A DNA stretch of 57,338 nt, filler included, from Streblomastix strix (taxonomy: Eukaryota), in NCBI GenBank assembly GCA_008636045.1. It is 3 parts of 3 records of this genome, joined end to end, with 100 filler letters (N's around TTAATTAATTAA, not from the genome) between each part and the next. Parts side by side here need not be neighbours in the genome. Positions count along the whole stretch, not along the records: positions 1 to 19,052 come from SNRW01000550.1; 2 more parts are not named here. One strand, given 5' to 3'. Of this stretch, positions 2,688 through 27,970 are shown one piece after another. The notes beneath the pieces are model-generated. The model was given only the letters and a program-made list of their open reading frames with translations, did no database searches and was not told where the DNA came from. The number at the start of each line of letters is the position of its first letter. Positions within the stretch are counted from its first letter, which is position 1. The translations under genes and the position numbers were made by a program.

Positions 2688-2876
2688 TCAATCTACTTTA
2701 CCTGCTAATTTAGCCCCTACTTCCATAGCTGATCCTATCGCAGGATGAATCATACTAACCGGTGCAGCTAATGTGCCTAGAACTTTATTAAATGTCGGAG
2801 CAACCCAATCTGCAGCTTTAGTTATACTTTCTAATATTTTACTACCGAAATTTTTCAATCCAAACCTAAAACCCAT
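2688..2876 (-). CDS. Small amphipathic virion-like protein (adenovirus protein VI-like N-terminus)
   Basis: MGFRFGLKNFGSKILESITKAADWVAPTFNKVLG...; Gly at position 2; amphipathic pattern; head-to-head with the putative MCP. The TGA may be premature. Confidence 0.5.
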   Translation of the reverse strand: MGFRFGLKNFGSKILESITKAADWVAPTFNKVLGTLAAPVSMIHPAIGSAMEVGAKLAGKVD

Positions 2877-2935
2877 TTATTATAATAAAAATTAATCAAA
2901 GTTAACATTTAAGCTGTTTCTTTTTTATAATCTAA

Positions 2936-4877
2936 ATTTCATTTGCATCAAGCGATTATTTGAAATGGTTATCTTCAGCGTAACATTCGGATTACATTAA
3001 TTCATACTCATAATTCTTGGGTGTAATGAAGACTTAAACTATTGTAGCATAATCGTTTAGTACATCTAAATAATAATTCTTTGATTAATCGGTGACCTAA
3101 CTTACAAATGAATGTACACATCATACTAGAGCTCCACTTGCAGCAATAGAAACTGCAACATGTTCATGTGTATAAACTTGTTAAATCAGTTAGTAAATAG
3201 AGATACCTAAAAATACATTGGCGATATAGATTAATGATATATAAAATGATGGTGCTGCATGTATGATATATTGTTAGCAAATATCTAATTATAATGCTAT
3301 TGATACAGGATTATGGGATACACCTTAATTAGTAACAATGGAATCAAGTGATACTGAAACAAAATATGTTTATAACCTAGAAGAATATATTAGATTTTGG
3401 TTATTCTTCTCCACTGCTTGTGGTCCATTTAATTAGATTGCTATATGTAAAGATTCATAGAAATTGTGGGATACTTCAATATATACTAGAGAATATGCAA
3501 TAATTGCATCAAACTCATTGACAGATTAATGTACCGTTAATTCTGTTACAGTTTCTCCACTTGAAAGTATAGTAGAAGGTAAACGACATTGATTGATATA
3601 TATGTATCAGCAATTAGTGTTGCAAGAGCTTATAACTATCTAATTTCTTATGATATGGTATTTAGTGGAGTAATGTATCTGAACTAATTGAATTCTATCT
3701 TTAACGGCTTTCCTGTAATGACTAGAAATTATTCTTCATTAAATATATAATTATGGATGCATGACTTCCTGTAAAATTTGAAAGTAATATGGTTAAATAA
3801 ATATAATTCAATATCAAATTAATATCTTGCGTAAGCAATGATTCCACCAGAGAAACCGGATATAATTGTCTTATAAAATGGAACTAATAGTAATTACACT
3901 AAATATGCTATTTGTCTAGTTAATATGGTAGGTAAACATAATATAACTACTAAATACCAACAGCTACAATAAGTTAAATTTAAAATGCTAAATTTACTGA
4001 ATTTTATATAAATAACTTATGTTTTAATATGGATAATGAAAATGTAATTGTTGATATGATTCGTAATCAAAGACTCATTAACTTTCCAACAAAAGTTCTA
4101 CGTAATTAATCATCTAAATATCCTGCAAGTAATATTGGTGGAGGAGGTGGATTTATTTAAACAATAATGTCATTTGCTAACATCAAGTCTCTACTTATTA
4201 CATTTGCTATGCCTTAATATCCGATATGGTTCTTCCCTGTTCTATTCAAAAAAATTGATTTGATTATAGATTAACGTCATGTTATTCCAAGCGCTTATCC
4301 TGTATTAACATAAGATGTTTGATGTTAAATGTTTAATTGTTTCGTTAATTAAGATGTAACTAGTGCCTCATCCGATTTATATCATTCATTAATGTTTGAA
4401 AACTAAAATATAGACGATAAAAATTACCCTTATGGATATGAAGGTAGCGCGACTAGAATGATAGAGAATGTGTTTTATAATATTATATTGTATAATGGTT
4501 CTAAAGCAGTTAAAGTATTCTATCCTAATTAGTTTATATTAGCACGGAAATTTGCTATTGATGATTCACTTATGCGAGGATATAACTCATCTATGGTAAG
4601 AACAAGAACTAATATACAAGTTTAAATCGGCGTTACACCTGTAGAGGATATTATTACTGATGATATTATAAGACTACCTCTTATTGATTAAAATGATTTT
4701 AAATATTTTACCTCAACAAGATGTTATCCCAATATTAATAATGTTAAATTAACACCATTAACTCATTATCTATGTAATGGTGTTGTTCGAATAATGTTTG
4801 ATGATAATCCTGATCCATAAAATCTATCGTTAGAGGTTATCGGAGAGATAGGAGGGAGTACCATCCGAAGCGGATGA
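2936..4877 (+). pseudogene. Putative major capsid protein of the Polinton-like virus, disrupted
   Basis: About 640 codons of beta-strand-like sequence recovered across at least two frameshifts and in-frame TGAs (e.g. ACGPFNQIAICKDSQKLWDTSIY; IKSLLITFAMPQYP; PLTHYLCNGVVRIMFDD). Size and context fit a double jelly-roll MCP; not confirmed by search. Confidence 0.55.
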
Positions 4878-5995: not shown

Positions 5996-6718
5996 TCAAA
6001 ATACCCTACCATTGAACGTTAATGTATTTCCATCTGCGAATATTTATAATCCTCTAGTATTATCACCTGCTTAAGATGCTACCGCAATTACAAAAATTTA
6101 AGGGTTATTTGTCGAATTACTTGGTTGTGTAAATATTGACCATTATCATTCAATGGCACTGGTGTTAGATGTTCTATTACAACCTAACTAAATCGATGTA
6201 TTCCATGTATTTGTTAGATCAGCTCTAGATATTTTCAAACTATTATTATAACCAGTAGCTGTATATTTTACTTAAAAATTACCAGAATTAACATTATCTT
6301 AGAAATTTAATGTGTTTCCATCAGCGGATATCATTAATCCTTTATCCTGACTTATTTATATATTAACTCCTATCCTTAATTCACCGATGGGTGTGTTTAC
6401 CATACTCCACTAATCAGTTAATGTTCCATAGGTTAAATTTGGATTACTACCCAAATAAATTCCATTATAGTTTCCAATGGTAGAACGTGATATTCTTAAT
6501 TCTTCATTAAAATTATTACTATTTGGTTATATTAAAACAGTTATCACAAATGTTTTTGTACCTGCAATCGTTTAATCAGTTCCAGAATCAATGTATCCCA
6601 AACCATTGAAAGTTAATATGTTTCCATCAGCACTGATTCGTATTCCTTCGTTAAATATTCCATTAATAGTTGGAATTACTTATAATAATTTACCGAATGT
6701 TTTTATACCAGTAATAGT
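5996..6718 (-). pseudogene. Fibre/spike-like repeat protein, 3' part; 5' end cut by the element end at 6716
   Basis: Repeated motifs TIxGxKTF (x2) and GxxIxADGNxLxF (x3), Gly/Asn/Thr-rich, with frameshifts. Confidence 0.6.
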
Positions 6719-7118
6719 AGTTAATGAAAAAGGACGATGCACTCACATTGATAAACGCAGTGATTTGCCCACATCAGAAATAACCAGTGATATTGCGAAT
6801 TGCTGAGATATGAAAAACGAATGAATTATCCAGAACCGAAAATCGAAGAATAAATTTGATGTTAATAAAGAAATTCGGATAATATAATAAACAATAACAT
6901 TTATGAATATCATTAGTAATGAAAAATAATTGTATGATTTATGTAGCGTTAATAAAATAATTAATTATAACATTTATGAATATCATTATTAGTGAAAAAT
7001 AATTGATATGATTTATGATATGTATTAATAAAAATAAATAATTGATTTGATTTCTGAACCTCACAAACGAATAGAATTTAGGCATTGTTTCGGGCATCGT
7101 CCTTTTTCATTAACTACT
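6716..7118. repeat. 403-bp fold-back with perfect 25-bp inverted ends AGTAGTTAATGAAAAAGGACGATGC
   Basis: 6716-6740 is the exact reverse complement of 7094-7118. An internal ~70-bp imperfect tandem duplication lies at ~6894-7040. Confidence 0.85.
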
Positions 7119-7841
7119 CACAGCCCAAATCAATGATTTGAGCGATACGTGCTAACATATATTGGCTATTTGACTATGTCCGATTAAGTTTTCATTGATA
7201 GAATTGAGATAATGGTACCGACTAACTGGTCGATGAGTGAAACACATTATTTGATGAAATTGATGATGATGAACAGTTCCAGAATTGATTATAATGATTG
7301 TTTTTGGAATCTATGAGTAAGATATGACCTTAGGATAGCCTTTGAGAGTCATATGAAAAATTAAGTTTTTAATCAGAATTTTGACCTATCATAAATTTAT
7401 TTTATTTTTATTATATAGACTGAAAAATCATAGAAAAATTGAAGTTTTTTGAATGACCTGAGAATCAATATACTAGTCAATGTTGATACGCTGATCACAA
7501 ATATAATGTTTAAAATGAGTGGATGGACTATTGATTCGGCCGAATTAAGCGGATTAATGAAAAAGATTAATGATATGGATGAATGATATGAAATATCCAT
7601 GCAAATAAAATATGGCAGCCTAAATGAGTGATGGGACAAAATGGTCTGTCCTCATTAGTATGTGTGTGCTAGCGGAGTGGACGAATTGAATAAATATCAA
7701 TGTGAGACAGTTTTGGGACGGGACAAATCCGTGGACTCCTGTGAAAAAGTGTTGCCATATTGCCATCCATGCCATAAATTTGAATCATGGATGAATGATA
7801 TGAATTGTCCATGTCAGCTTAGCTGGCTTTTGCAAAAGCAA

Positions 7842-7916
7842 AGTGTCCTGAGTGACCTGAGTGTCCTGAGTCACAAGCTGGATCGATTTGAGATCTGCCA
7901 TTAACCATAATGCCAT
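7842..7916 (+). promoter_or_regulatory. Iteron-like cassette 1: 3x AGTGTCCTG followed by a GCCAT/ACCAT triplet
   Basis: agtgtcctg-agtgacctg-agtgtcctg-agt, then tgccattaaccataatgccat ~27 nt downstream; ~55 nt before the helicase ATG. Confidence 0.7.
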
Positions 7917-7971
7917 AAATCAAATAAAATTATTTTTCTCAAACTTTTTCAACTTTTTATCCTTATGCAAA

Positions 7972-10698
7972 ATGACATCAGAAGAATCCACAAGCGTCGA
8001 AACAAAATCAATTCAATCCATAAACGTTAAACATATTACATTAGAGAAAGGTTCAAAAAGATAATATAATCGCAAATCGAAAACTGATAATAAAGCTAAA
8101 GAATTAATGGACAAATTACTAGAGGAATAAGAATTAGCGAGAATCAAATGTGAATAAGATGAATTTGATGCGTAAAAGAAAGAAGATGAAGAATAAGAAT
8201 TTACGAGACATCTAATTGAAGACATTGCTTAGAAAAAGTTGAAAGAATAGTAAAAATAAGAATAGTAAATAGAAATGGATTAATTTTTAGAAAAACTTAT
8301 ACCAATTGCTGTATAAATTAAAGAAGAAATAGTGAGTAAAACTATCATGGAAAGAGTTAAGAATGCAATGATTAACACATTAAATTATACTAAAATAGGT
8401 TAAAAAGAAGGTGAGAAAAAATAAGTAACAGGTAAATTAATTGATTTGACTCTAGTTGAAGATGGTGATTTATGTATGATTGATTTCGATATTAATAAGA
8501 AACTATCAATTGAAGAGACTGATATAATAAGATAAAATATAATAGATAATATGCATTCTGCTAATGTAGGCTTAGTAAAGACCGCACATGATGGATTGCA
8601 TGCTTATTGCAATAGAGATGGATATACATTACCTTCGAATCGATGTGTGAAATGTATCGTATTAGATAGTATTGAGATTGATATATTTGGATAAATGTTT
8701 AAATATAAGGAACATGGAGGAATGGAACAAAAGGAACTTGTATAAAATCGAGTAGTTGGTCCAAACTCATCATTCCGAGAAACAAAAAATAATAAAAGAG
8801 AAACACTTAAATATGAAGCTATTAATGATTGGGCTAATATGACACATTTAGCGAGTCTGAGAGAGATCTTAGATAGCTGGAATGTCGGTATTGAGATACC
8901 GTTCAAAGAATATGTAGACAAGGTAAATATGAGAGAATTTGGTTGGCAAATCACAGAAGAAGAAACTATTTATATGATGAATGATGAACTTGCATAAGCA
9001 TGTGTTAATGGATTGAAGAACCTTGAAATACATTACTATCCTTAATCAATCAATATGGAAGTATCACTTCTAAGTGTATTCTCTGGATTATATGGAATCA
9101 CTAATGAATAGATTAGAGCAGAAGGAATGAAAAATATACGATAATACAATAAGCTAACTCCAAACGCTGAAATGAACTATGGATAATCATCATTTAATGG
9201 AGAACGTAAGCCAAATTCATGGATCCTTACAAAAATCCTAAGATACCATAACAAAGATTACTATGAATAGATAATTAAGCCATTATTGAAATAGAATTAT
9301 GAAGTGAAAAAATAATAGAAAATATCTGATACAGTGTAATAAATTGAGAATCATGAAAATGACTTGAAAGATCAGTTCACATTAATAGATGTATCTAGCA
9401 AAGCATTAAATGGAAAATATGAAAATAAATTAGAGTTAGTTGCATAAAATTTACTGAGAATAATTAAAGTTATACCTTGCTAGAACGGATGGTGCTTCAT
9501 CATTAAAGAATACGATTGTATCGCAGGAAAAAATACTATAAAATATAAAAATAAGACAGCCTTATATGATTAGTTACGTTCAATTAGATTATGGTAAGAT
9601 GGGAAGAAGCATATCACTGCAATTGACGCTTTAGAATAATATCATTCACTACTTGAGAAGATTGGCATGAAATTCACTAGTAACAATGAAGGTATATTCA
9701 ATGTATTCTAAGGATTCAAATATATGCAATTAGATGAAGTGGATTAGATAAAAATAGATAAATTCCTAGGATTAGTGAAAGATACAATCTCAGTGAATGA
9801 TGAACGAGTTTATGAATACATATTAAATTGGTTTGCATTCATTGTATAGAATGTTGGAAAGAAAACTGAAACAGCTATTATACTTAAAGGATTATAAGGA
9901 ATAGGTAAGAATGTGTTCACTAATGTCTTATGCGAATTACTTACAGGTTACTCTTCAAAGAATATCACAGATATCGATGATTTTGTAGGTAAGTTCAACA
10001 CTGCTATTGAGAATAAGATGTTGGCAATTGCTAACGAAACGAAGAACTTTGGAGAATCGAGAATGTCGAACATGGATGCGTTGAAGTCGATAATTACTGA
10101 AAGTTCCTTTGAAATTAATGAGAAGTATGTTCATAATCATGAAGTTGAGAATGTAGTGAATATAATGATTGTTACAAATAATATCTATCCATTGAAGATT
10201 GAAAATAGTGATAGGCGTTATGTTGTATGTGAATGAAGTCCAGTTCATCTAGTGGATCTAGCTTACTTCACTACTCTTTGCAATAGTTTTGATGAAGATT
10301 TTTATAATAACTTATTCACATTCTTTATGACTAGAGATATTTCATAATTTAATCCAAGAAACATTCCAATGACATAAGCGAAGAAAGATATAATAAAAGC
10401 ATCAATCTCACCCGTTGATGATGTAATAATCAGTCATTTCAAATCATTTAGAGATGGAGTTACATGCAATATTGTTGAAGGATGGAAACCATAAGAAATG
10501 AAATTAAAGAATTATTAATTAGCAATCAAAAATATATGTGAAAGAGTTAGAAAAACAAGAGGTGGAGAACGTAAATGGATGTATTAATTGAAAGAAGAAA
10601 TGATATCAATCTATGAAAGTATGCTAGATGAAGACGCTGATGAGATTAAAGAATAAGTTGAGTAAGAGATATAGAATGATGGTAATGAATATATATGA
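7972..10698 (+). CDS. AEP (Prim-Pol) primase fused to SF3 (D5-like) helicase, ~908 codons, one internal TGA at 10234-10236
   Basis: Single frame with TAA/TAG=Q. AEP motifs MIDFD, KTAHDGLHAY, EIDIF; Walker A GLQGIGKN; Walker B-like LAIANE; motif C IMIVTNN; Arg finger DRRY. Confidence 0.9.
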
Positions 10699-10743
10699 AA
10701 TTATTTTTGCTTGGAATCGTGGAAAATAAATGTGAAATGAACT

Positions 10744-10817
10744 AGTGTCCTGAGTGTCCTGAGTGTCCTGAGTGTATGATATTCTACATTGAGATGCTGC
10801 CATTACCATTCTGCCAT
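10744..10817 (+). promoter_or_regulatory. Iteron-like cassette 2: 3x perfect AGTGTCCTG plus GCCAT triplet
   Basis: Same layout and spacing as cassette 1; lies between the helicase stop and the ATG at 10863. Confidence 0.7.
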
Positions 10818-10862
10818 TAATGTTTTACTAAACATATAACATAATTTTTTATTATAATATAA

Positions 10863-11147
10863 ATGACACAAGGAAAGATGAGATACATTAACCCTTTTGA
10901 TCCACGCGTATAACGATCATAGTATCTAGAGTTCAGCAGTCAATTTCTAGATTAAATTATTAAAAGTCATGAAGATGAATTCATAAAAGGAAGAACGTTT
11001 CTATAAGTAATGGATCTATAACAAAGAAATATGCAATTAAATGAATTTCGTACATTAATGTTTAACAAATTAGATAAGAGATAGTTAACCAAGACTGGTA
11101 AACCAGCTGCAAAACCAAAGTACTATTTGAGGAAAGATGATAAATGA
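10863..11147 (+). CDS. 94-aa basic protein paralogous to the helicase C-terminal domain
   Basis: Intact ATG-TGA frame. MTQGK...LDQIIKSHEDEFIKGRTFLQV...MQL aligns by eye with helicase MTQAK...VDDVIISHFKSFRDGVTCNIV...MKL. Confidence 0.75.
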
Positions 11148-11218
11148 ATTATTTTTGTAATTAATGTGTGTGCCAATGATGATATGTACAAATGAGAAAT
11201 GTTGAATTAAAAATAAAT

Positions 11219-11370
11219 ATGGCATTATGGTTATGGCTTGATCTCTGATTGGAAAGTCATAGACTCAGGACACTCAGGACACTCAGGACACTAGTTTATT
11301 TTGAATCAATTCTCCATGATTCCAGCACATAAAAATGCCATACATTTTTCAACTCAGGACACTCAGGACA
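11219..11370 (-). promoter_or_regulatory. Iteron-like cassette 3 (inverted) plus two extra repeats
   Basis: 3x CAGGACACT at 11263-11292 with ATGGC/ATGGT triplet at 11219-11237; two more units at 11352-11370. The flank to ~11326 is an imperfect inverted copy of 10709-10817. Confidence 0.7.
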
Positions 11371-11604
11371 ATCTGATAAATAACCCCATTTGCACTTACA
11401 CCATTAATCAACACATTAACGCTCACAAATTATCTCAAAAATTAATCCGACCGACCGACCGACTTTTTCTATTTTAGCCATTTTAGGGGTTTCAACTCGG
11501 CACATCGGCACACCTGAACAATTCACTTCATTCATCCACTTCGTTAACGCACACCATTAATTCAAAAATAAATCAAAAAACCTTTGGTTTTGAGCTCTGC
11601 TAAT

Positions 11605-12245
11605 TCATTAATTATATCGATCAATTATATCGCTAATTTAAAGTAAATCATGTACGTCAGTTATGACAGTTTTCTAAAGACGTCGAATCAAGAGGAGTTA
11701 TAAATCGTTGGCAGATGCTCGGAACTCTTATCTCTGTATTCTATATTTTTATAGTGCACGGGATCGTTACTCTGCGGCAATGCGTTCGGCTTCTTCAGGG
11801 CTACTATATTATGGTTAATAAATTTGCTACTTATGAAGAATGTATTTATCTTGTTTTCTATATAGAAATCCTTTAGAAATTTCGAATCTTAACATTTCTC
11901 ACCATTTCCTCTTATATCATCAAACCGAACCAGTTTTGTCAACTATTATAGTGCATTTAACATTGGAATTTATGCTTTTGATAATATAGGTATTACTTCC
12001 TAATTATTTTTCATTTTGGATACTTAATCAATTTCCCAAGAATTATAATTAGGTGAGAAATAAGGACGTTCAAATTTTGAAAGTGGATTAAGCTAATAAT
12101 CATGTTGTTCAAATGTGTTAGTTGAAGGGTAGATATCGAATTTGTTTTTCGTTTAGTGAGTTGTAATATCATAGTAATTAGCTTTACGGATAACATCACA
12201 CTTTGATTTGAAAAAGAATTGGTTTTATTGTGCTATTTCTTACTA
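11605..12245 (-). pseudogene. Internally deleted rve integrase remnant fused to the remnant of its downstream small ORF
   Basis: RPYFSPNYNSWEID, IRGNGEK and KFINHN match the integrase at 16243. It is followed by YSSPEEAERIAAEQR...NDLQLLLIRRL, matching the 17692 ORF. Confidence 0.75.
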
Positions 12246-13499: not shown

Positions 13500-16010
13500 A
13501 AATATTCCATACGATTTGTCCTAAACAACATAATTCTTAGCTGTTTATCCTTTAATATAAGGACAACAACATTAATTCCTAAGTACTATTGATTTATTAT
13601 TGAAACCAGTTAGTGCATACTTTTCTACTTGAATACTACTCATAACATTATCGTACATTTTTTAGTGTTCCATTAATACTTTTTTTCATTATATTTTTAT
13701 TTTTTACATTTTTATAATTTATATGAATTATTTCCTATGTTTTACTAATTCTTTTTGATATTATTTTTGGTTTAAATTCAAACTTTTATTTGTCTTTGTT
13801 TCACTTATGAACTATCATTGAATAGCGTTTTGCTCCTAATGATGTAAGCTCATATCCTTCATTTTAAATACCAAAACCAAGTATCTTTTTGTAGTCATAG
13901 ATGTCCTTATTTGGGCCTGGCAAATACTAGTATACATGTTAGTCATAGAATTGCTTATCTGTTACTATAGCTTCAAATTATTAATGACAGTCTTTAGCTG
14001 GATTACCTGCTATAGCTATATAAATTGAATCAGTATCAGCAAATATAAAATTGAAACGTCTTCGGATAAGAAACTTATACATGAAGTTATAGAAGCAATT
14101 GAGATACTAATATTTCGCATTATCTAAGGTAAAAACTCCTGATTAAAGTGATGTAAAACAAATAACTGTCTTAGGCAGAACTGATACTGCAAATATATTG
14201 GCACTAATACATCTGGTACCAATGTGATTAGGAAGATGTTATGCAATAAATGTATCAGCTTTATCTAATAATTTTATTTTACCAAACTTCTCTGTATTTA
14301 ATATGTCATACTTATAAGACACGTTAATCATTAGTTTGTAAAATTTCTCTTTAGAAGATCCTGCTAATATAGCTTAAATTCTTAAGTTCATCATCGTCCT
14401 AACAAATGGCTCCTATTCCGCAACTTTCTCAAAGACTGTAATAGCTTTATAATCAGTAATGATGAAACCAAGATCAATAAATAACTATAAATAATAGTTA
14501 TTGAATACCATAAATTGACCGTTAGTGTCGAGTAATGTTGTCAATTTCTTTTCCCTCTTTGTCATCGGAAGTAAATGATTTTGTGCTAATGAATACATAT
14601 ATCCATCACTTCTTCTTTGGTTTTTATCTTTATATTTCTAAATATTGGTTGTAGAACAAGTACATTATTAAATTCTGTTTGAGGGAAATAACCTTTAACT
14701 TTTGCAACAAATATGTCTTTCACAAATTAATACAGTATTTAATAACATAAGGTTTTTCTAAATAGAATTTTTACCTTTCTAGCATATACATTCTATGATT
14801 GGTGTAAGGGATATTTTTATTTTTAATTGATAAATATGAACTTGGATAAAGATTATTACCATCAAGAGCGAATACATAAGTAGTAACATTTTCATTATCT
14901 TATGAGATCACTTTGTTTAATTATTCGTCATAAGTTAATACATTTATATAAGTTTTGCTTGCAATATTTTCCCAATGGAATACTGCTGCAAGACCACCTG
15001 TAATACATACTCGAAGTAATTTATATATTCTTTCATCATTTATTGTCATTGGTAGATTGTTCTTAATTGCATATTGTCTCATCTTGATATGTAATGATGC
15101 TATTTTTGGATCTCTATTTGCATGCGCTATATTACATGAAACACATGTAGGCAAACAGTTATCTTTTGTATGAGGAAGTTTGTTATTTTTTCTATCTAAG
15201 CATGATGAATTGTTATTAGAAAATTTTGCATTACAAATAGAACATACTGATGACTCAAACAACTTTTTATAGTTATTGTAATCATTTGATGAGACATTGT
15301 TTTCTGAATCTTTAACTGCTTTATAATTTTATTACTTATAGTTATAATACATATCTTTCCAGTACCATTCCGTTAGTACAAAAGGTTTAGCATTAGGATT
15401 TGGATTAGTATAATCAGCATTAATATTAAATTCAGAGTAATATGTCTATTTGTCACTTTCAAGATTGAATTTAGAAGGAAAGTATGTTGAATGGTGTTTC
15501 GTTGCATATGCGCATGAAGAAATTGAAATATAGTGTAAAACATCAATATTGAATTATTCAAATGTATCATTTAAATTCATTAATGGTTTAACCATGATCT
15601 CCGTATCATTAATATTATAATATTTGAAGTATTCTAACCTGTTGGTGAATCTCTTAAAATCAATCAAATATTAATCATATTCATCTTTAGCGATAGTTCA
15701 ACCTCCTTTGAGTTATGACTTGAAATCATCATACTCAAATAATTCTGTTTTCATCAATTCTTTTTTTCCTATTCTTTATATTGATAAATTCATATGGGAA
15801 TATATCTTTATATTCAGATTTATCTCCATCATCTTTTATACTTGATTTTAATGTCATTAGTCCAAATAGATTCTCTGCATCAATGAATTGTAATTTCATA
15901 TGTGATTTCTTGTGTGTTACTGTTCTTGAAAATTAGTGTTGTGTCTCATTCCTACACATTAGCAGATATCAATTGAGTTCAGATAATTATGCAATTATTA
16001 ATGATGAGCA
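13500..16010 (-). pseudogene. Protein-primed family B DNA polymerase, 5'-truncated and frameshifted
   Basis: KDIFPYE; Exo III YYNINDTEIM; ITGGLAAVFH; motif A ALDGNNLYPSSY; motif B FYKLMINVSY; motif C FADTDSIYIA; SLGAKRYS. Confidence 0.9.
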
Positions 16011-16035: not shown

Positions 16036-16157
16036 ATTAATTTGGCACGATAATTTGGATTGGCTAACGAATGACTATTGACTGCAACGAGTGCAACGAG
16101 TCAAAAACTTTCATCAAAAACTGCTGCCATTCTGCTATTCTGCCAGAAGTGAGAAAA
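16036..16157 (+). repeat. Left arm of imperfect inverted repeat with variant iterons (AGTGCAACG) and TGCCA triplet
   Basis: Reverse complement of ~18070-18195 over ~120 bp. Confidence 0.8.
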
Positions 16158-16242: not shown

Positions 16243-17643
16243 ATGTTAAACGAAAATAATTTGAATGAGGATATACTTAGGACTTTTTAAGGAGAATAAT
16301 ATCAAAGAGAAGAAAATGAATTTGAAGTATAATAAGATATCGATGATAAAACATATAAAATTCATTATAAAACGAGTCTATCAGAGTTCATAAAAAATAT
16401 CTTTAAAATTGCAAAGAAAAAAAATGTCGATGTTATAGTAGAAAAAGCTGATGAAATAATTATTGGAAAGCTAACAGTTGCAGATTAGTATTATTATTAT
16501 TATATTTCAGTTTAATTATAATTCGAACCATCAAAATAAAAAAAATATAAATAAATAGATGAAAAAAATGCATAATAAGCGGTTTAGATATCCAGCCAGT
16601 AATCCGCACCCATTTAAGGTGACGACGATGAAAATATGCTCTATTTTCCTTTAAAAACAAAATTAAAATTGTTTGAAAAAAAATAAACATAAATAAGCTA
16701 ACAATCAATATATTCCAGTGAAAGATTATAAATTAAAGCCATTATAAAGATTACAACGACCTTATTTCACTCCAAAGTTAGGGAGTTGGGAAATAGATAC
16801 AGTCTTTTCAATCGATTAAGACTTGTAAGAAAACAACAATGAATATGATGGTGCTATCTTTGAATAAAATGAAATATAAAATATAAGAGAAAAAAAGAAG
16901 AATAATAAATGCATATTTATTTTTCAAAAACATTAATACAAAATATTTAGTCGTTTATCCATTGATAGATAAATCAGCCGCATAAATAGTTGGATAATTG
17001 TAAAAATTAATTAAAAATTATTACATAAATAATATTCGTGGTGATGGAGAGAAAGGATTTAATAACTCGTATTTTGCTTTGTTTTGTTCATAATATAAAA
17101 TTAATGGTTATTTCACTGATTCAAAAATTCACTAATCATAATAGAGTAGTCGATTCAGTTATTCGTACAATAAGGAATGCGTTTGGTTATAAATTTAATT
17201 AATTTTTAACGAATCAATAAATGTAAACAGTCGTTGGTATGCTCAATAATACACCACATCTTGCGTTTCAAAATAAGTATAGCTCATATTAAGTTCAATT
17301 ATCAAGAGATTTAGAAGGATTATATATACGTTCATAAATGAAGAAATTAGAGCGACAACCAGCAAGATAGCGAAATGAAGGCCTATTATCATTTAAGGCA
17401 GGAAATATAATACTAACCCATCTTGATTCCTAAAAAACATAATAAAAATTTATGAAATAATGAAACAATTTCAATTAATTAGCGAAATTTATTCGATACG
17501 TAAATGGTAATTTTTTATGCAGATTATTAAATAATTTTTATAAATTAAATTTAATAAAAATATTATCACATTATAGTAAATAAGTAAGTGAAAATAAAGA
17601 ATTTATACCATAAAATTATGCAATAAAGTTTTTATTTAGATGA
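16243..17643 (+). pseudogene. Retroviral-like (rve) integrase of Polinton type, frameshifted
   Basis: RPYFTPKLGSWEIDTVF (D1), NINTKYLVVYPL, NIRGDGEKGF (D2), FTNHNRVVDSVIRTIRN (third acidic residue), NNTPH; about three frameshifts. Confidence 0.85.
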
Positions 17644-17691: not shown

Positions 17692-18033
17692 ATGACAGCT
17701 ATTGAGACTTTCAGCGAGGCAATCAACGAAACAGTTAATGAAGCAATCAATGAAACAATATAAAAAGATTCATATAATTCAACAAAACAAGGACATATAA
17801 AGAAATATACCGCTAAAGAATATGCAATGATTGCTGCTAGGGAAGAACGCAAAAGTGCAAGAATTAAATACAAATAAAATTAAACAAATTATATTTCTAA
17901 AGTCAATGATATGCAATTATTAATAATTAAAAAATTTATAAAAATAATTGTGAACATTAGTTATTTAATAACAATTAATGAATTAATTAAAAAAATACGA
18001 AAATAAAAAAGACATTAACGAAGATGCTAATGA
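17692..18033 (+). CDS. Small basic hypothetical protein downstream of integrase, 113 aa
   Basis: Open frame ...GHIKKYTAKEYAMIAAREERKSARIKY...NDMQLLIIKK; homologous remnant at 11605-11812. Confidence 0.55.
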
Positions 18034-18069: not shown

Positions 18070-18240
18070 TTTCTCATTTCTGGCAGAATGGCAGGCTGGC
18101 AGCTGTTTTTGATGAAGGTTTCTGACTCGAAGCACTCGATGCACTCGGTGTAGTCAAAAGTCATTCATTAACGATTCCATTTTCTCGTGTCAATTTCATT
18201 AAATACGATGATGCTTTATAACTCGATGCACTCGGTACAA
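18070..18240 (-). repeat. Right arm of the inverted repeat with variant iterons plus two extra units
   Basis: tggcagaatggcaggctggca, then cgaagcact-cgatgcact-cggtgtagt at 18128-18154; extra units at 18221-18240. Same layout as 11219-11370. Confidence 0.8.
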
Positions 18241-18360
18241 TCAAACGTTCTATAATTTTACTATTGATTTCACCAATTAATTTTAGGTTTCCAGCCGCAA
18301 GGCGAAGGTCGAAAGACTGATATAACCAAATTCATTAATGGAATCCATTAACCTTTGCAT

Positions 18361-18617
18361 GCAGTTATGTGAAAAAAGAGAGTGCCATACATTTCAAAAA
18401 TATCATTTAATGACGTATATCACTAATATACTTCAGTGTCGCACATTCATAAATCATTGTCAATCATGTTCTTTCAATAATATCGTTTAAATATTTATTT
18501 TCTTTTACATTATTTATTTTCATTATTTATTTTACATTAATTATTATTATTATTTATTTTACATTATTTTTGTTTTATTTTTGAATGTGGGGCACTCTCC
18601 TTTTTCACATAACTACT
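18361..18617. repeat. ~255-bp fold-back ending in ...CACATAACTACT (Polinton-like terminus)
   Basis: 18361-18402 (gcagttatgtgaaaaaagagagtgccatacatttcaaaaata) pairs imperfectly with 18576-18616. The end resembles the 6716 terminus. Confidence 0.75.
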
Positions 18618-19238: not shown

Positions 19239-21130
19239 TCATTTCATTCTATCTCCTAACAACTGAGTAATTTAATTTCCTAGTTATTGCTCATCTTTTA
19301 TTGCTCGATGCGGAATTTTAGTGCAATCTTAGCAAATTGCTGCTTTTGCGAATGCGTGCATATTCGCATGTTATGTTGTTACTAACTAAAGCGTTATTAT
19401 ATATCTCTGCATTTTATCGCCTTATGTCTTAGTGGCAAACCCAGTGATATATTTGCGTAACTTGCTTTTCATTGTGTGAAAAGTGGATAGTCCGAGAGGC
19501 TAGAAACAGTGACTTATGTAAGCTGGCAATTTGGTTATCCGTATTTGCGCTTCAGTGAGTGCTGATTCTGTTTCTTCAGTTAAAAGTGATCTATGTCTAT
19601 CCAATAGTAACCTTTTTCACTCTATTGGGCGTAATTTGTTTTCTTTCCTCAATTTAACGATTTATAGGAATTAAGTGCCTCGTTATCCAAATGAAAAAGT
19701 GATTTGAGCACATATAACCCTTATTGATAGGCAAAACAATGCAACAAACTACGTTATGAAGTCCTTTCTTAAATATATAATCAACTATTGATTTTTATTG
19801 AACAATGATGGCTGGACATACGTTTGAACCGTTGAGACAAATCACAGCCAAAACTGTGCAGTTTTTGTCACTTCTATCGATATTGTATTTACATTAGCTA
19901 TCCTTGACTGATACTAATCAAATAACTGCTTTGCGATGATTGTCAACATATTGTTGAATCCCAGATTCGTCGAATTTTATAAAAATATATGCAATAATTC
20001 TAACAACTTCTTCGTCAAAGTGAATGTTGTATTCCGATGCAGATTCTAATGGAGAATAGAATCTCTCATCTTCCATAAGCGATGCGAACTTTGCCGTAAG
20101 CTGGTGCTCTCTGCGAGAAAAAAATGAAACTGTATAGCCGTTTGTCGGCTAAATACTTGGAAATAATTGTTGTACATACTCGAGAAATGCAACATGCATA
20201 AAATGATCACCGTTTGGATGGTTCCGCCCACAAGTGATATCCACAATTTTATTGAATAAAATTATTTAAATTAATTAAATTAATATTTTTCATAAATGAA
20301 AATAATATAATTTTACATATATGAAAAATTTGGCGAAAAATATAATTTTCCATTTGCGACCCCAATTGAATACATAATTCCGAATTGGTTGATTCATTTT
20401 TCAGTAAAATATTTTTTATTTAAATTTTCCTAATATTTTTATCGAATAAAATTGTGGATGATTGCTCTGAGCGGAATCATCCAATTTTTATATCAGTTTG
20501 TGGCCCCTTGAACAAAAATATCCTCTTACGGGTCTGTGAATTTAGGTGCATTTGCATCTTGCTACTTTTTGCCCGTTTTTCTGATGATGGAATCACAAAA
20601 ATATTGATATGAAATATCAAATATTACAGCAAATGAACGAAGGATCCATTTTTTTTCAGTAATTGTAATTACAGCCGCGTGAAAGTCTTTAATTTGCTAG
20701 TCTCTTATTTCGTAGTTTTTGCTCAATAACTCGCGTAGAATTTATCATCACGATCTCATATCTAGAATTTTTTGCAATTCTACAAGTATCTTCCCAATTG
20801 AGCCTGGTTTAACCATACTTATCCTTACAAATAGATTATTTTTTTCCCAATTTATATGAGACGTTTAATAAAAAAATGTAAACTGTCAGGTTCGATCTTT
20901 GAGTCTTGATTAATTTTTGGACGTCCTGGTGAATCAATGAAAGCAACAAGAGTATGATTAGCTACAAATTCTCTCATCCGTTTCACATTAGTTGCTTTCT
21001 CTGGTGAAACAGTTCCGTGTAAACCTCGTAAGTCATCAAATATATTATTATTAGTGGATTGTCTTAGAAACCTAACTTCAAGCACAGTTCTGTTGCGTAA
21101 GTAACCAATTCTTGACAAAACAACAGTCAT
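19239..21130 (-). pseudogene. pogo/Fot1-like (DDE_1) transposase, decayed and interrupted by a MITE
   Basis: KFDESG (D1), TVLAVICLNGSNVCPAIIV, NKGYMCSNHFFIW, LLLDRHRS (D2), LPAYISHCFQPLG (QPLD motif with D lost). HTH-like N-terminal segments lie 5' of the insertion. Stops and frameshifts present. Confidence 0.8.
20214..20484. mobile_element. 271-bp MITE-like insertion with ~48-bp imperfect TIRs
   Basis: TTGGATGGTTCCGC...ATCCACAATTTTATT at the left end pairs with AATAAAATTGTGGAT...GCGGAATCATCCAA at the right end; AT-rich non-coding interior; no clear TSD. Confidence 0.7.
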
Positions 21131-22437
21131 TTTCTATTAGGCAAAGAAATGCTTGATTTAAAAACTTTAGTTTGAAATCAATTTTTAATTAATAAAATTC
21201 TTACAATTATAGTAATAAAATTTATAAATTTCAAATACAAATTTATAAAATAATTTGAATCGAAAAATGGCTTTATGAAAAAATATATTTCCTGCAAGAA
21301 GTTTCATAAATATAGAAAAGTGATGATAAATAATGACTGTGTGCATATCTTATTTGAGAAATTCTGTTTTTTTCTATCATATATGCTCATTTTTGATAAT
21401 ACCTAGCTTAACGCTATCATAAACAGTGAAAGTAAATATATTGTTTATTGTACATCTCCATAAGTGTGATTCATATACATGATATGAAAATCAATTCTAT
21501 ATATGGATCTGGAAATAAATGGCGAATATATGTTTTTTTACCATCCTATAATTCTTTCAATATCTAAAATGCAGAATTTTAAAAGGACATGAAATTTAAT
21601 ATTTATATTTGCAGATGGGCTTGTACTTATGATAATCGCTAGACATAGCTATTATATTTAAATAATCCTTAAAATAATTACCTGAGCATGGTTCTCTGTT
21701 CGTACTTTTGCAGTTTCGCTCTAGATATCGAGCTAAAAATTTTGCTCCCATAAAAATTATTTTTATCAAATGGCATGCTATAATACAAAATTTTGAAGTA
21801 TTAAATTAAAAAGTCTCAACAAAAGTTTCAGCTTCTATTATTTAATTGAATTATATTTTGACTGATTCACTTAAATTTTTATTTATAGTTTAATTTCAGT
21901 AACTTAATTCAACATTTATGTAATTTCTCAATTATTTTACATAAAAATGAACGTAGTATTTATTCCTAATAGAAATTATACAAAACAATAAAAATATATT
22001 AGAAATTTTCTTTTTATAATTCATATTATAGTTTTTTAGAAAATCAGGTCAACTGAATGGAATGTTATTTTAAAATTTAAGAAAATTTTGAATTTATATA
22101 TTTTTTAACTAAAGTCAATAATATTTATAAAAGTTCTATATAAATTAAATATATTTACTCTTACATTTAATTTTTCATTCACAATAATAATTTTTTTGCG
22201 TGTTTATTAATTGATATATTTATATTCGATAGGCTATTCTAATGAAGATACACCTCTGAATGTATTATAGTCAAGAATTAGTACTCTTGAAGGAGTGTTA
22301 AATGAAATTTTCGATTTAATGCAAATTTAATAAATATCAATTAATTATTACTTTTCTTAATTTTGTATCATATCTCCATAATTTTATTAATAATTCTTAT
22401 TCTCTGTATTCATCTAGCTTAACATTGGACAGATCAA

Positions 22438-22857
22438 ATGATGAAGATTCTCATCAACTCGTTATATTCAAAAAAGGGCATTTTCCTAAAAGAACTTGAT
22501 AACACACTTATGCTCGACGAGGACGAAGACACTTTATTTATTTATAATAATTTTTTATTATTGTTGTTACTCTTATTACATTTATTATTTTATTTTATTT
22601 ATATTTAATTTATCAAATTCGTGACATTGCCAACGAATTCAGTGAATTCATATATTTCACCATATATCTACGAGTAGAAGAAGACACAAAAGACAAATCT
22701 CGTCATAGAGATGAATGAATAAAAATAATATTTATATTAAAATATAATAATACTTATATATAATAGATATGAATACATAAATACAAACAAAGCCATTTGG
22801 CAGAGAGATCATAAAGAAGTTAACGAAGAAGAATATAAAGACTTCTTCAAAGTGTGA
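22438..22857 (+). pseudogene. Captured Hsp90-family (Grp94-like) gene fragments inside the transposon
   Basis: MMKILINSLYSKKGIFLKEL; TLMLDEDED; QIRDIANEFSEFIYFTIYL; YEYINTNKAIWQRDHKEVNEEEYKDFFK, in native Hsp90 order with the ATP-binding core missing. Confidence 0.85.
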
Positions 22858-22969
22858 TATAATTAAATTTGATAAAATAGATAAATTATTAATTTGAAAA
22901 TGCCCTCTTTTATTTAATTTTTATTTGAAACAATAATTGTGAAACAATAATTAAAAATTATTTAATAGG

Positions 22970-25310
22970 TCAATTCTTATCGTTTAATTTATCCAATTCC
23001 ATTTGTATTATTTCCTTGGACATGTCATCATAATCAATAGATACATCTGATTTCTTCACTTTATTAGTACATTTTCCCGATTCCGATTCAAACTTCACAA
23101 CAACTCCTCCAGATTCTTCAGATTAACTTGCATAGAACATTCCATCAATTACTTCATAGTTAAGGTATTTTTAGAAATTGTTCAATTTTAATTTTTTCAC
23201 ATTGACATTTAGTTTATCAATGTCATATTCCAGTACGACCTATTTCAAGTTCTCTGGCACATTGAATTATAGAAAGTCAATCATTTAATGCAAGGTGTTG
23301 ATTCCTGAGCATGGCAATGACAATTGTATTAAGTTGGCATACAGGCCAAAAATGGAATCAATATCTGATTTGCCATGTTAAGACTCAAAGTAGTGCAATG
23401 CGAAATGAAAAGTTTAACTTATATGTAAATTAAATATATTAATAGATATTATTATTATCAATATAAGTATTATTTTACTCAATATATTTTTAATTATATT
23501 ATACTTATCCTTTCTTTTCAATCCAGACAATGTTGATTATCCAAACTCTTTGGACTTAAAACAGCTTCCTCCATCGCTCCACCAGTTGATTTTTTTCATT
23601 GATACAAATTCGTCCCGTTCAAGGATTGACTGAAGACAATGAAGCACCACTTATAAAGTATGGGTCAGAACTCTGGAGAGAATCGTATAAACTCTTTTGA
23701 TGACCCCAAGTATAGATCCAAAGAAAGCTACAAAAGATAAACAGGAAATTGGACATCTATGGAAGAGTTGAAAGCTTTATTAATCATGATAAATACCTAA
23801 ATCCCAATTTTGCTTGTAATCTCCAACTAATACGGCCTCACCAGGTTTAACTTCTTTTTTCATTTTGTTATACTTTTCTCTCTATTTTTTCTATCTCTTT
23901 TGATGTTTATACCACTCTTTCAGAAGTTATTTTTCCTTTTCAGGTACCTGATCAAATGTCATTTTCTTCATTTGCATCTTTTGAAATATTTTATTTGCTA
24001 AGAAATAACTAGAACATAGATCTGTACGCTACGTAGGATAAACAATATTCCTTAAGATCTTGTAAAAGAAGGTTTTTGAAATTGAAATAAATGGAAATAT
24101 GGATTTTATAATATTACATATCTTATTTTTTGAATAATAGCAGATCTTCTTCTATTCAATGAGCTGAAATTAGCCTCTTAATCTTGTGTGAAGTAAAGTG
24201 CGCAGGGAGATCTTATCAGCATCACCTTGTTGGATCTATTTCAGAATCTCTGGAATATTATCTCGATCAACCAGTATGGATTTGATTTATTAAAATCTAT
24301 TATTTCTTTCATATTTCTTCATCAATTTTAAAATATTAATCATACTTAGAATTATAAAGAGATTAATTAAATTATTTCAATTTCAAATCTTATTAATCTC
24401 TTTCTTATTATTTAAGAATTTTTTCTGGAGAAATGAAAAGAGGAGTCGTTGGTGATGATAATGATGGAACTTGTATATTGATTATTCTTTGTGTAATGAT
24501 TGGTGTTGAAATATAATTATTTTATTTCATTTATTGTGATTTCAAAAATTATTCTTTTTTAATTTCAGTACATAACTCTCTATTCCTTTATATTTGTTTT
24601 CTGTTTCCATAGTCAGTCTCAATGTCTACAGGTTACGATAATTTTTTAGTTAGACTTTATTTTCCCAAATCAGTCAAGAAAAGATCATGGAAATAAGTCA
24701 AAAAATCGCTGATTTCAACTCCAGAAAAATCTGATTTAGGGAATTTGAATGTTATATTAAGTTATTTTAAATATATTGATAATATTAATTAATACTAAAA
24801 CACTAATAATTTTATATTTATACCTTCGATTACAATAACATCATCCTTGCCTTCAAAAATTTTTACTTTAGATTTATATTTAAAAAAAATTTAAAATAAA
24901 TAACATAATTAAAATTTTCAAACCGTTTCTTTTTTAGTTTAAACATGTATCTGTTGAAATCATTAAAATAACACTGTAGATTATAGCAAGATCCAAGGCT
25001 AATGGACCTTATAGCTCAAAAGCGATTGGGCGAAGCTCTTCAGTTCGAATAACAATAGGGTCGCTGCTTCGTTTCTTTGCAGTTTTAAATTTGGAAGGTG
25101 ATAATTTATAATCGTTTTGCCTGTTCCAATCTGCAAATTCAAATTCAGAGCAAAAAATTGTTTTGAATGATGAAACAAAACCTGGATCTAATTTTTTTTT
25201 AAATTACGATGCATTCTGAAGAATATGCTAAAATTGGTCTTTATTAATATTTAATTGAATTTTTGGTTTAAAAGTTTGAAGTTAATCTGAATTAATTTGG
25301 TCTTTTCCAT
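22970..25310 (-). CDS. Sola2-type DDD transposase, intron-containing
   Basis: AVLVGDYKQNW (D1), WWSDGGSCFKSK (D2), YFESQHGKSDIDSIFG (D3). The catalytic core reads open with TAA/TAG=Q; intron at ~23414-23503 and others 5'. Confidence 0.8.
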
Positions 25311-27970
25311 ATAAAATATTTTAAAATATGTTATTAGGACAAAATTTTAAGCTTGATATCTAGAGCTAAACTGCAAAAATACGAATAGAAAACTATGTTT
25401 TAGAAAATAATTTAAGGATTATTTAAATGTAATGGCTATGCCTAGCGATTATCGTAAAAAAAAGGCTCATTTTTAAAATTTTAATTATAATAATTATTAA
25501 TATTTTAAATTTTAAAATTTTAATTGTAAAAATAATTTATATTTTAATTTTTTTTATTAACTATTTTGCTCTTAGAATTACCTCTAAAATTAACGATGAT
25601 AGTTGATATGAAGATGTTTATGATGGAGAATTGTTAAACACGAATGAAATTTCTTAAAATATAGATTGATTTTATATCATTTTAATTACACATTGACTGT
25701 AGTTTTCTTTCATGAGAACAAGGAGAGTTTGAAGTCAAGTTTCAATTTAATATTATTATTAAGTTAATTAAGATTTTCCAATCAAATGTCTATTGAAAGA
25801 TGATATTTGCAAAATTCATAATTTCTTCATTCTTTATCTATTTATATGAATTGAGGAATATTTACTTAAATTGCAATTGAAATTATCAAATTAATAATTT
25901 GAAGCAATCGTACATATATTTTGAGTCCTTGTTTTAACAATAACTTATATAATTAACTATGAATTAATTTAATTAATCCTAAAATTTTATTAACTTATCA
26001 AAGATAGAATTGTGACTGCGATATGTTAATAGATGACTCTCATCATTATTCTTCTTTTTAATACAAATCTTAAGTTTTCAGCGAAATCTGATAAAATTAT
26101 GCATTAGTTCGAATTAAAATTATTTTAAAGTTTTTTTAAATTATTTCCTTTAAATAATTTAATCAATTTTATTTTGTTATGCTGTAATTATTTAATCTGA
26201 TTATTATTCTGATTAATGCTAAATGTATTCCAAAATTCAAAATTTGTTTAAAAATTTAATTTGACTAAAAATTTCTAAAAATAATTATATATATTTACTA
26301 TAATTTATGAATAATATAACTTTATTAAATATTATTTCAGGATCTCATTTAATTATTGCTGAATAAGAAATTTAATGAAATAATTTATAATTTAAATAAA
26401 AATTATATTTATGAATAAATAACACTTTAATTGATCTTGAATAATTATTTAATTACATTTAAACATGCAAATTTATAAAATATTCTTTACGCGAAGTTAT
26501 TTAAAATTAACTATTTTGAGAAATAGTTAAAGCTAACCTTTTATTTTTAAAATTTAAAAAAATTATTTTTATTTAAAAATTAAATTTCTTAAATAATTGT
26601 TTAGAAATTATTTAAAATTTCTATAATTTTTTAAATTTTTCTAAAAGAATATTTTCTTCCGGAAATTTAAATCGATAATTTTTTTGCTTACGTGATTTAT
26701 ATATATTTTAAGCTATTTTAGTAAAAAATATTGAAAAAAATTTAATTTTTAATTTTTTTCTAACAATTCTTTTTATTTTAGACATAAACATGTAATACAA
26801 TTTATAAATAATTGTATTTGCCTTAATCGTTGTCTTATTCGTTTTCTCAATCATTGTCTTTATTGTTCTCTTAATTGTTGCATTAAAATTACTAATATAT
26901 GAAAATAAATAGGTAAATTTTTGTAATGATTTTAGTACTTGGTTTAATTTTTTATTTTTTAAAAACGAACTTTAAGTCTTTATTTTAAATATTTAATTAT
27001 TAAATGAATAATCACAAATAAATTATAATATTTTGAAAAGAAAAGTTATTCTTTTTTAATTCTATTTGTTTTGTTAAATTAAAAAAAAATAAATTAATTT
27101 ATTTATTTTAAGTGATAATAATCTTTTTTGAAACATGAAAAGTTTGAAAACGTAAACTTTTGAATTTTAATAAAAAATTTTAATTAAATATCTTGTATTT
27201 AACTTTTAAGAAAGTGTATCAAGTACTATTATATTTATTTTGTTATAATATAAAAAAAATTTTGGAATTAAAAAATTGTAAGATTTTTTTTAAAAAAAAG
27301 TGTTTATACCATGCATGAAAATTAAAATTTTTTCAAACTATCATTATTACTTTCTCGGTAAAAATAAAAAGTTCCTTGCAATTAAATAAGAATGGTAGAG
27401 GTAAGTTCAAAGAACATCAGTTTAAATATCTGCTATCCAACAGCACGCCAGTAATCTGCGTGAGTCTCATCAGATGTGTCTATACTAATTTTATTATTTT
27501 GAAATATTTTAAATAATTTAATATAATCTGCAAAGTAAAAACTCAATTCAACTGTAATTTTAATGAAGAACTTTTAAAATAAAAGAGTTTTAGGCTACTG
27601 AATAATATTTTATTAACAATTCAAAAAAAAAATCTACCAGACATTTAAATGGCTTAAAGGAAAAAGTATTATTTTTAATCATTTTTCAAGTTAATGATTA
27701 ATAAAGCTTCTGAAACTAAAAAAATTAAAGCGAGTTTTCTAAATGAAAAAAATATAAGCATCTATATATTACAATCGTAATTAATATTATTAAGATAAAT
27801 TAAAAAAAACTAAAGAAAGAAAAAAACAAAATAAAATAAAAGAAGATAAATGCATTATAAGTAAAGAATAAGATATAACCAATTAAAAATAAAATAAAAA
27901 GTCAACAAAAAGGTGAAAATAAAGATAATGATGCACTTTACCCTTAAAGCCCCATAACACCACTTGAAAA

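Follow-up and report, generated by a model that had tools for sequence, protein, structure and literature searches.

Winged-helix helicase tails, iteron origins and small copy-number regulators are known parts of replication control. To our knowledge, little is understood of the way in which Polinton-like elements of protist genomes initiate replication and keep their copy number in check. According to passages of PMC9371898, SaPI Reps use a C-terminal winged helix to bind opposed iterons of five or six nucleotides that directly follow rep, and NrS-1 is named as the closest structural homologue of SaPI Rep/PriRep5. Likewise, the winged helix of P4 alpha binds origin repeats (passages of PMC4234260) and cnr sets the copy number of P4 (passages of PMC8628076). 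In pRN1, ORF904 has the order prim-pol, SF3 ATPase and winged helix; when isolated, this winged helix had no sequence preference (passages of PMC2777425). Inverted repeats beside primase-helicases were hypothesised to be origins (passages of PMC11296320).

Here we report on a locus of Streblomastix strix that carries a stand-alone homologue of a helicase tail between opposed repeat arrays. Like SaPI Rep/PriRep5, the neighbouring protein is an SF3-type primase-helicase with a C-terminal winged helix, here a predicted one, and as in the SaPI ori short repeats in opposite orientations come right after the helicase ORF. Unlike SaPI, the host is a eukaryote, the 487-bp spacer contains a gene and is not clearly AT-richer than its surroundings, and further copies of the repeat module exist elsewhere in the element. 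The P4 pair alpha and Cnr is comparable in that a small protein is encoded beside a primase-helicase with a winged helix, the binding of origin repeats being that of P4. Yet here the small gene is located downstream and inside repeat arms, and homology of its product to the tail of the very helicase beside it can be detected, which is not known to be the case for Cnr and alpha of P4. At the level of family searches, the small protein gave no PHROG or Pfam match above noise that would link it to Cnr. The domain order of pRN1 ORF904 is the same as here, whereas repression in pRN1 is the task of another protein (orf56) and its stem-loop origin lacks iterons. With the Metamonada-group endogenous viruses of S. 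strix the locus shares the genetic code, nearby KilA-N genes and, by motifs, polB-like and integrase-like frames; passages of the main text of PMC10120064 describe neither a stand-alone winged-helix gene nor internal iteron arms. A literature search at the level of titles and abstract starts found no description of a stand-alone helicase-tail paralogue inside opposed repeats in a Polinton-like element.

A small gene in a virus-like element

The window, i.e. the whole stretch of DNA analysed (57,338 nucleotides, filler included, from assembly GCA_008636045.1), was read with TAA and TAG as Gln (code 6). These translations match database proteins at 82-95%, and endogenous virus elements of S. strix use this code of their host (passages of PMC10120064). 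Decayed genes of a virus-like element are present in the first 18 kb of the window, where Pfam also found KilA-N domains. By motifs recognised in the translations we take 13801-15595 to be polB-like and 16243-17460 to be integrase-like; searches of Pfam and PDB with these frames gave no match to polB or integrase families. Within the polB-like frame an endonuclease VII-like domain was observed at 14720-15595 on the minus strand (PHROG 1035, E 1e-5). When a major capsid gene was sought, the broken ORFs at 2771-4877 matched no family in Pfam or PHROG. This broken long frame on the plus strand may be capsid-related, as may a short Gly/Ala-rich, amphipathic-looking frame on the minus strand (2688-3167) without family match. 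Self-comparison of the window revealed no long terminal repeat pair as terminal inverted repeats.

Other features of the window are recorded here. The minus strand carries, at 12021-12101, a piece of a second integrase-like gene which is 59% alike over 27 aa to that at 16243-17460, so that two elements may be mixed in this region. The stretch 11600-11793 had the highest summed contig depth in all four sequencing runs, with a loose end common to the runs at 11793, and the sibling gene models P0017 and P0026 continue into it after the helicase; possibly an element ends here, or this copy has suffered a deletion at this point. At 21627-25457, 118-bp inverted repeats (85%) flank a 457-aa ORF (22970-24343, minus strand) with transposase-like motifs by eye and no Pfam match, which is likely a separate DNA transposon. 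A perfect 25-bp inverted repeat (6716-6740 and 7094-7118) surrounds a 73-bp tandem repeat, and two further inverted pairs are at 18363-18614 and 20214-20484.

The small ORF extends from 10863 to 11147 on the plus strand and encodes a basic protein of 94 aa with a pI of 9.9. It contains six TAA/TAG codons which are decoded as Gln. It is absent from the ORF list under table 11, and the first-pass annotation had correctly ascribed its omission from the ORF track to these codons. An ATG further upstream at 10695, from which a 150-aa frame crosses the left repeat arm, was dropped as start; the sibling gene models P0004, P0005 and P0036 begin at the position of 10863. Because the window holds 200 ATG ORFs of at least 94 aa under code 6, an open frame of this size is by itself little evidence for a gene. 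In family searches the protein had no PHROG family at E<=0.1 and in Pfam a weak DUF2515 row at most. The best explanation is a gene of a Polinton-like element in an oxymonad, a termite-gut protist.

Five sibling gene models of the small protein were found, all labelled S. strix. One is full-length at 95%, the others are partial or chimeric: three of the five are without part of the small ORF, and one is chimeric. P0005 is without 15 residues, which by eye correspond to a 45-nt GT..AG stretch and may have been cut out by gene prediction. Contigs from four runs of three studies (runs X1 and X4 are one sample) were then aligned to the small ORF. Among the 40 best-supported of 128 difference rows, 22 were synonymous against 25% expected (p 6e-5), the pN/pS was about 0.28, and none created a stop or a TGA. 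No indel in the small ORF was listed among 65 contigs. Against this stands the tally for the helicase, with 4 synonymous among the 16 rows shown; most of these rows are sites at which nearly every other copy differs from the decayed one here, which makes the helicase a poor control. By eye, 11 of the 13 contig loose ends shown (8 more exist) stay in frame with family-like peptides, one of these with an ATG at the same place as in the small ORF; the remaining two come from a single short unrelated match. The summed contig depth over the small ORF was 5- to 60-fold below that over the helicase in the four runs, a depth that does not equal copy number and misses copies less than 80% alike, and that was therefore left out of the argument. 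The synonymous excess and the sibling gene models argue for a maintained gene. Thus, the ORF is conserved among sibling elements, as five models, 22 of 40 synonymous differences and 65 contigs free of listed indels attest.

A search of 1.84 billion representatives yielded no family member outside S. strix. A fern LRR protein (P0037, E 4e-7) was discarded as a spurious relative. Further, 98 related helicase loci (34 viral, 55 metagenome and 9 genome contigs), most of them distant and many ending soon after the helicase gene, contained no stand-alone homologue; the best score was 11.0 bits (E 0.43). So far the small family is confined to one host species.

Kinship with the tail of the primase-helicase

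The gene upstream (7972-10698, plus strand) encodes an NrS-1-like primase-helicase with a DUF5906/VapE-like ATPase, identified by Pfam and a structure-database match. In a sequence search of the PDB its family matched the NrS-1 primase (structures 6k9c and 6k9e), with an E of 5e-32 for 6k9e; the match covers the ATPase, not the tail. In this copy the frame is broken by an in-frame TGA at 10234-10236, and the part matched by the small ORF corresponds to codons about 788-874 if the TGA is read through. Matches to the tail were labelled S. strix in 28 of 29 cases. Among the 98 loci, the short contigs L090-L093 carry close helicase relatives (34-47%). These contigs had been assigned to genomes of gut bacteria and archaea and may be protist elements placed in the wrong bin. 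At another locus, L035, direct repeats of 20 and 33 nt flank the 3' part of the helicase gene (1124-1275 and 2666-2722), and an array of 20-bp period is found at 901-1013.

The first-pass annotation had aligned the small ORF with the helicase tail without gaps. Counting confirmed 11 identities over 41 positions at offset 30 in the stretch which it quoted. Pairwise BLASTP found nothing in this register (best E 0.87, elsewhere), and blastn between the two yielded nothing significant. On the DNA level the identity in the proposed register was 58/123, the best of 2604 offsets; this is not counted as independent evidence since the register was chosen from the protein. Next, profiles were used. A profile of 30 helicase tails scored the small ORF at 12.2 bits, which 2 of 20000 shuffles reach, and ranked it as the top non-self frame among the 853 frames of the window. 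When built from 32 tails of more distant helicases, none with the label S. strix, the profile gave 13.9 bits (E 3.8e-6, 0/5000 shuffles) and matched residues 19-92 of the small protein in the same register. All 48 tails together gave 20.9 bits (E 2e-8 as one comparison, 0/5000 shuffles), and the next unrelated frame of the window scored 10.7. A score that increases with the depth of the profile is the behaviour of real homology. Profile-profile alignment by hhalign had a probability of 83.6 and an E of 8e-6 over 75 columns. The similarity to the C-terminal helicase domain which had been anticipated is thus borne out at the profile level, in register over about residues 7-92 of the small protein. 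The reverse search was weak, with at most 9.9 bits for the small-family profile on 61 helicases, as expected for a profile built from six close sequences; in 22 of the 25 rows shown the best stretch was within the tail.

Three further short matches had been listed. FDPR/FNPR fits with a 5-residue gap (offset 25, also by hhalign), and KYYLRK/MYQLKE can be placed as KYYLRK/WMYQLK with a 3-residue gap (offset 27). The third one, MTQGK/MTQAK, did not hold. It requires an offset of 43 and follows FNPR in the helicase, while it precedes FDPR in the small protein, and the sibling P0036 has MKQRK instead. Being out of register, swapped in order and not kept in the sibling, it is a chance likeness.

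The small protein is 22% identical to the neighbouring helicase and 25% to three outside helicases. In a tree of 50 rows the small proteins are on a branch of 3.6 changes per column, outside the S. strix helicases and with poor support; a grouping with the S. strix helicases was not rejected (p-AU 0.12, 27 of the 50 rows). This indicated that the small gene is an old offshoot of the helicase family. Of the duplicated helicase tail that had been suggested, the homology stands on profiles and hhalign; origin from this very neighbour does not follow in view of identity, branch length and the best tree, though the p-AU still allows a grouping with the S. strix helicases. That the small gene is a real homologous gene we consider very probable.

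The fold was then examined. The model of the helicase tail had a pLDDT of about 96 over residues 51-125, with helices at 58-65, 67-72, 76-81 and 89-99 and strands at 100-107 and 110-117, i.e. a helix-helix-helix-hairpin arrangement. In a Foldseek comparison with the PDB the top rows (prob 0.97-0.99) were regulators with a winged helix, namely PadR, RTP and MarR, although no row reached E<=0.001. A VIA structural search reached Z 7.3 with an rmsd of 5.1 over 90 aligned residues and none at Z 8; Z values up to 7.3 are at the level of a common fold only. The best viral rows in the structure search included long phage proteins and an iridovirus helicase. From this model the tail is confidently predicted to be a winged helix, as had been expected (10411-10590, plus strand; residues 58-117 of the modelled tail). 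The small protein's own model was of low confidence (pLDDT 55, pTM 0.29). At offset 30, its helices 37-41, 46-49 and 59-67 nevertheless coincide with those of the tail at 67-72, 76-81 and 89-99. A fold search with this weak query returned no rows, and the small-family profile had no match among PDB sequences. Because of the poor model and the empty search, the winged helix of the small protein is predicted by homology, carried over from the tail.

Only 2 of the 11 residues of the predicted recognition helix are common to the small protein and the neighbouring helicase; therefore competition for the same site cannot be assumed. Six of the 11 are invariant within the small family, and a conserved Phe67 is in this region. 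A recognition helix that differs from the helicase yet is invariant points to a specificity or a partner of the small protein's own. The small protein has a strong basic charge overall, and its basic wing is conserved.

Repeat modules around the small gene

The left arm (10688-10835, plus strand) reaches from the helicase stop to a point 27 bp short of the small ORF. It carries a GCCAT double motif and a GAGTG array of 9-bp period at 10744-10775 (3.6 copies), whose first unit lies 45 bp beyond that stop. The right arm (11199-11348, minus strand) is an inverted copy, 75% alike, with its array at 11263-11292. Both arms have at least three 9-bp units and the GCCAT double motif. On the minus strand no ORF was found downstream of the right arm, and a partial extra array of two 9-mers lies outside it (11343-11373, minus strand). 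The small ORF begins 88 bp after the left array and ends 115 bp before the right one, with at least two repeats per side in opposite orientation. The first-pass annotation had placed it exactly between two inward-facing iteron cassettes. The opposed arrays were confirmed, with the small ORF between them at the distances given, but the modules are not unique to this place.

A further module precedes the helicase ATG (7835-7920, plus strand; 71-74% alike to the arms in the core). Another, related one is situated before the integrase-like gene (16073-16150, plus strand; 47-48% alike to the three on the helicase side) and has an inverted partner at 18076-18162 on the minus strand. Outside this partner there is a partial array at 18221-18248, a layout as around the small ORF: in both cassettes the partial array is about 80 bp outside the right arm. 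As a side observation, the segment 16036-18248, with inverted arms 72% alike and the GAGTG/GCCAT module, encloses the integrase-like gene and a 113-aa ORF (17692-18033). Likeness of the DNA beyond the two right arms was not counted, as 11 of 300 shuffles reach it.

Altogether the window has five full GAGTG modules. All nine GAGT[GC]N4GAGT[GC] pairs of the window are within them (shuffle mean 0.04). Constant is GAGTG at 9-bp spacing, variable is the 4-bp spacer. As a sequence pattern, a fixed core with a free spacer suggests candidate protein-binding sites. The module is spaced 130 bp from the ATG of the helicase and 119 bp from that of the small ORF, and both starts are in an AAATGAC context. 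The spacer between the arrays has 28% GC against 26% in the window and is not marked as an AT-rich centre; one 41-bp patch before the small-ORF ATG is at 10% GC. The contigs of X1 and X4 depart from the sequence at 10701, just past the helicase stop, so not every helicase copy continues into the left arm. The gene models P0006, P0017 and P0013 translate repeat arrays as TECTEC, SMHSMH and CPECPE, from which we infer GAGTG-core 9-mers with other spacers in other copies. The module was not found in the 98 related helicase loci, nine of which were scanned for repeats without a similar pair, and a search of metagenome and viral contigs by DNA patterns gave 0 matches.

What the small protein may do

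Support is good for the gene and for its descent; its role we infer. The reading which we prefer, by analogy, is that the small protein binds the GAGTG modules and acts negatively, damping replication or transcription; we put its probability at roughly 0.45. As in SaPIs, the opposed arrays would serve as an iteron origin, here recognised by the tail of the helicase. A free winged helix without ATPase or primase would occupy the arrays, and replication would be blocked rather than started. Modules before both ATGs would let the small protein repress the helicase and its own gene in a negative feedback. Thus, occupancy of the arrays could damp either helicase loading or transcription of the helicase and of the small gene itself. 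Repression or titration of the initiator, proposed in the first-pass annotation, is plausible by analogy with SaPI and P4. The main doubt concerns specificity, given 2 of 11 recognition-helix residues in common with the neighbour and six invariant in the family. The isolated ORF904 winged helix without sequence preference, a spacer that is not notably AT-rich, the low-confidence model of the small protein, the weak reverse search, the departure of the X1 and X4 contigs at 10701 and the 98 helicase loci in which neither a stand-alone homologue nor the module was found also count against this reading.

A different partner has to be considered. The small winged helix might pair with the helicase's own winged-helix tail and alter origin binding or assembly, in the manner of Cnr, rather than occupy repeats. 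The recognition-helix region, unlike that of the helicase yet invariant in the family including Phe67, is compatible with a protein partner, and P4 cnr does control copy number (passages of PMC8628076). Cnr is reported to have been modelled as a winged helix. The title of a 2002 paper by Yeo names regulation by homo- and heterodimerisation of winged-helix proteins. However, the small protein itself had no Pfam or PHROG family match above noise, the pI of 9.9 and the basic wing suit DNA, and the gene sits within the repeat arms; we regard such pairing as improbable. Equally low is the chance we give to a transcription factor or accessory protein with another target, for which the homology would reflect ancestry only and the modules would serve the virus as promoters or terminators instead of origin iterons. 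The module 119-130 bp before both ATGs with their common AAATGAC context, the related module before the integrase-like gene and five full copies, more than one origin requires, would all agree with this. Yet two of the five modules face inward, and for neither was an ORF found downstream on its own strand; moreover, the inward modules belong to pairs of inverted arms which in each cassette are accompanied by a partial array on the outside.

The unit of arm, ORF and arm (about 660 bp) might also be a selfish mini-cassette, an old internally deleted derivative of the helicase unit that kept the ends and the binding domain and spreads among sibling elements. One and the same module precedes both the helicase and the small gene, and the integrase-like cassette is framed alike. 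The sibling models P0031 and P0017 terminate in short reverse matches to the upstream flank of the helicase (weak hits), and some siblings depart from the sequence at 10701. A protein identity of 22% and purifying selection argue for an established gene instead, no target-site duplication or inversion came to light, and the tail of P0007 is an undeleted left arm, not a flipped cassette; we consider this origin very unlikely. Inversion of the cassette, which the P0007 tail had suggested, was rejected as unproven. Least credible, and largely refuted, is a chance open frame or a dead helicase fragment without function. The 200 ORFs of such size under code 6, the BLASTP E of 0.87 and the incomplete or chimeric sibling models, which may be broken copies, could be read in this way, but the profile scores that increase with depth, the synonymous excess without indels and the full-length sibling at 95% contradict it.

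Returning to a small protein that damps by binding the modules, a more comprehensive scheme may be formulated by analogy, which we hold as doubtful. A Polinton-like virus would have a SaPI-style iteron origin, with its copy number controlled by a stand-alone winged helix split off from the primase-helicase; by reading GAGTG modules in the integrase cassette as well as at the origin and in the promoter of the helicase, this protein would join replication and integration. If true, both processes of the element would be tied to a single feedback loop. As candidates, the locus provides GAGTG at 9-bp spacing for the site, the helicase tail for its reader and the 94-aa paralogue for the brake, all three small enough for direct binding assays. 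If the proposed role is true, iteron control in the style of plasmids and satellites would extend to a eukaryotic virus-like element.
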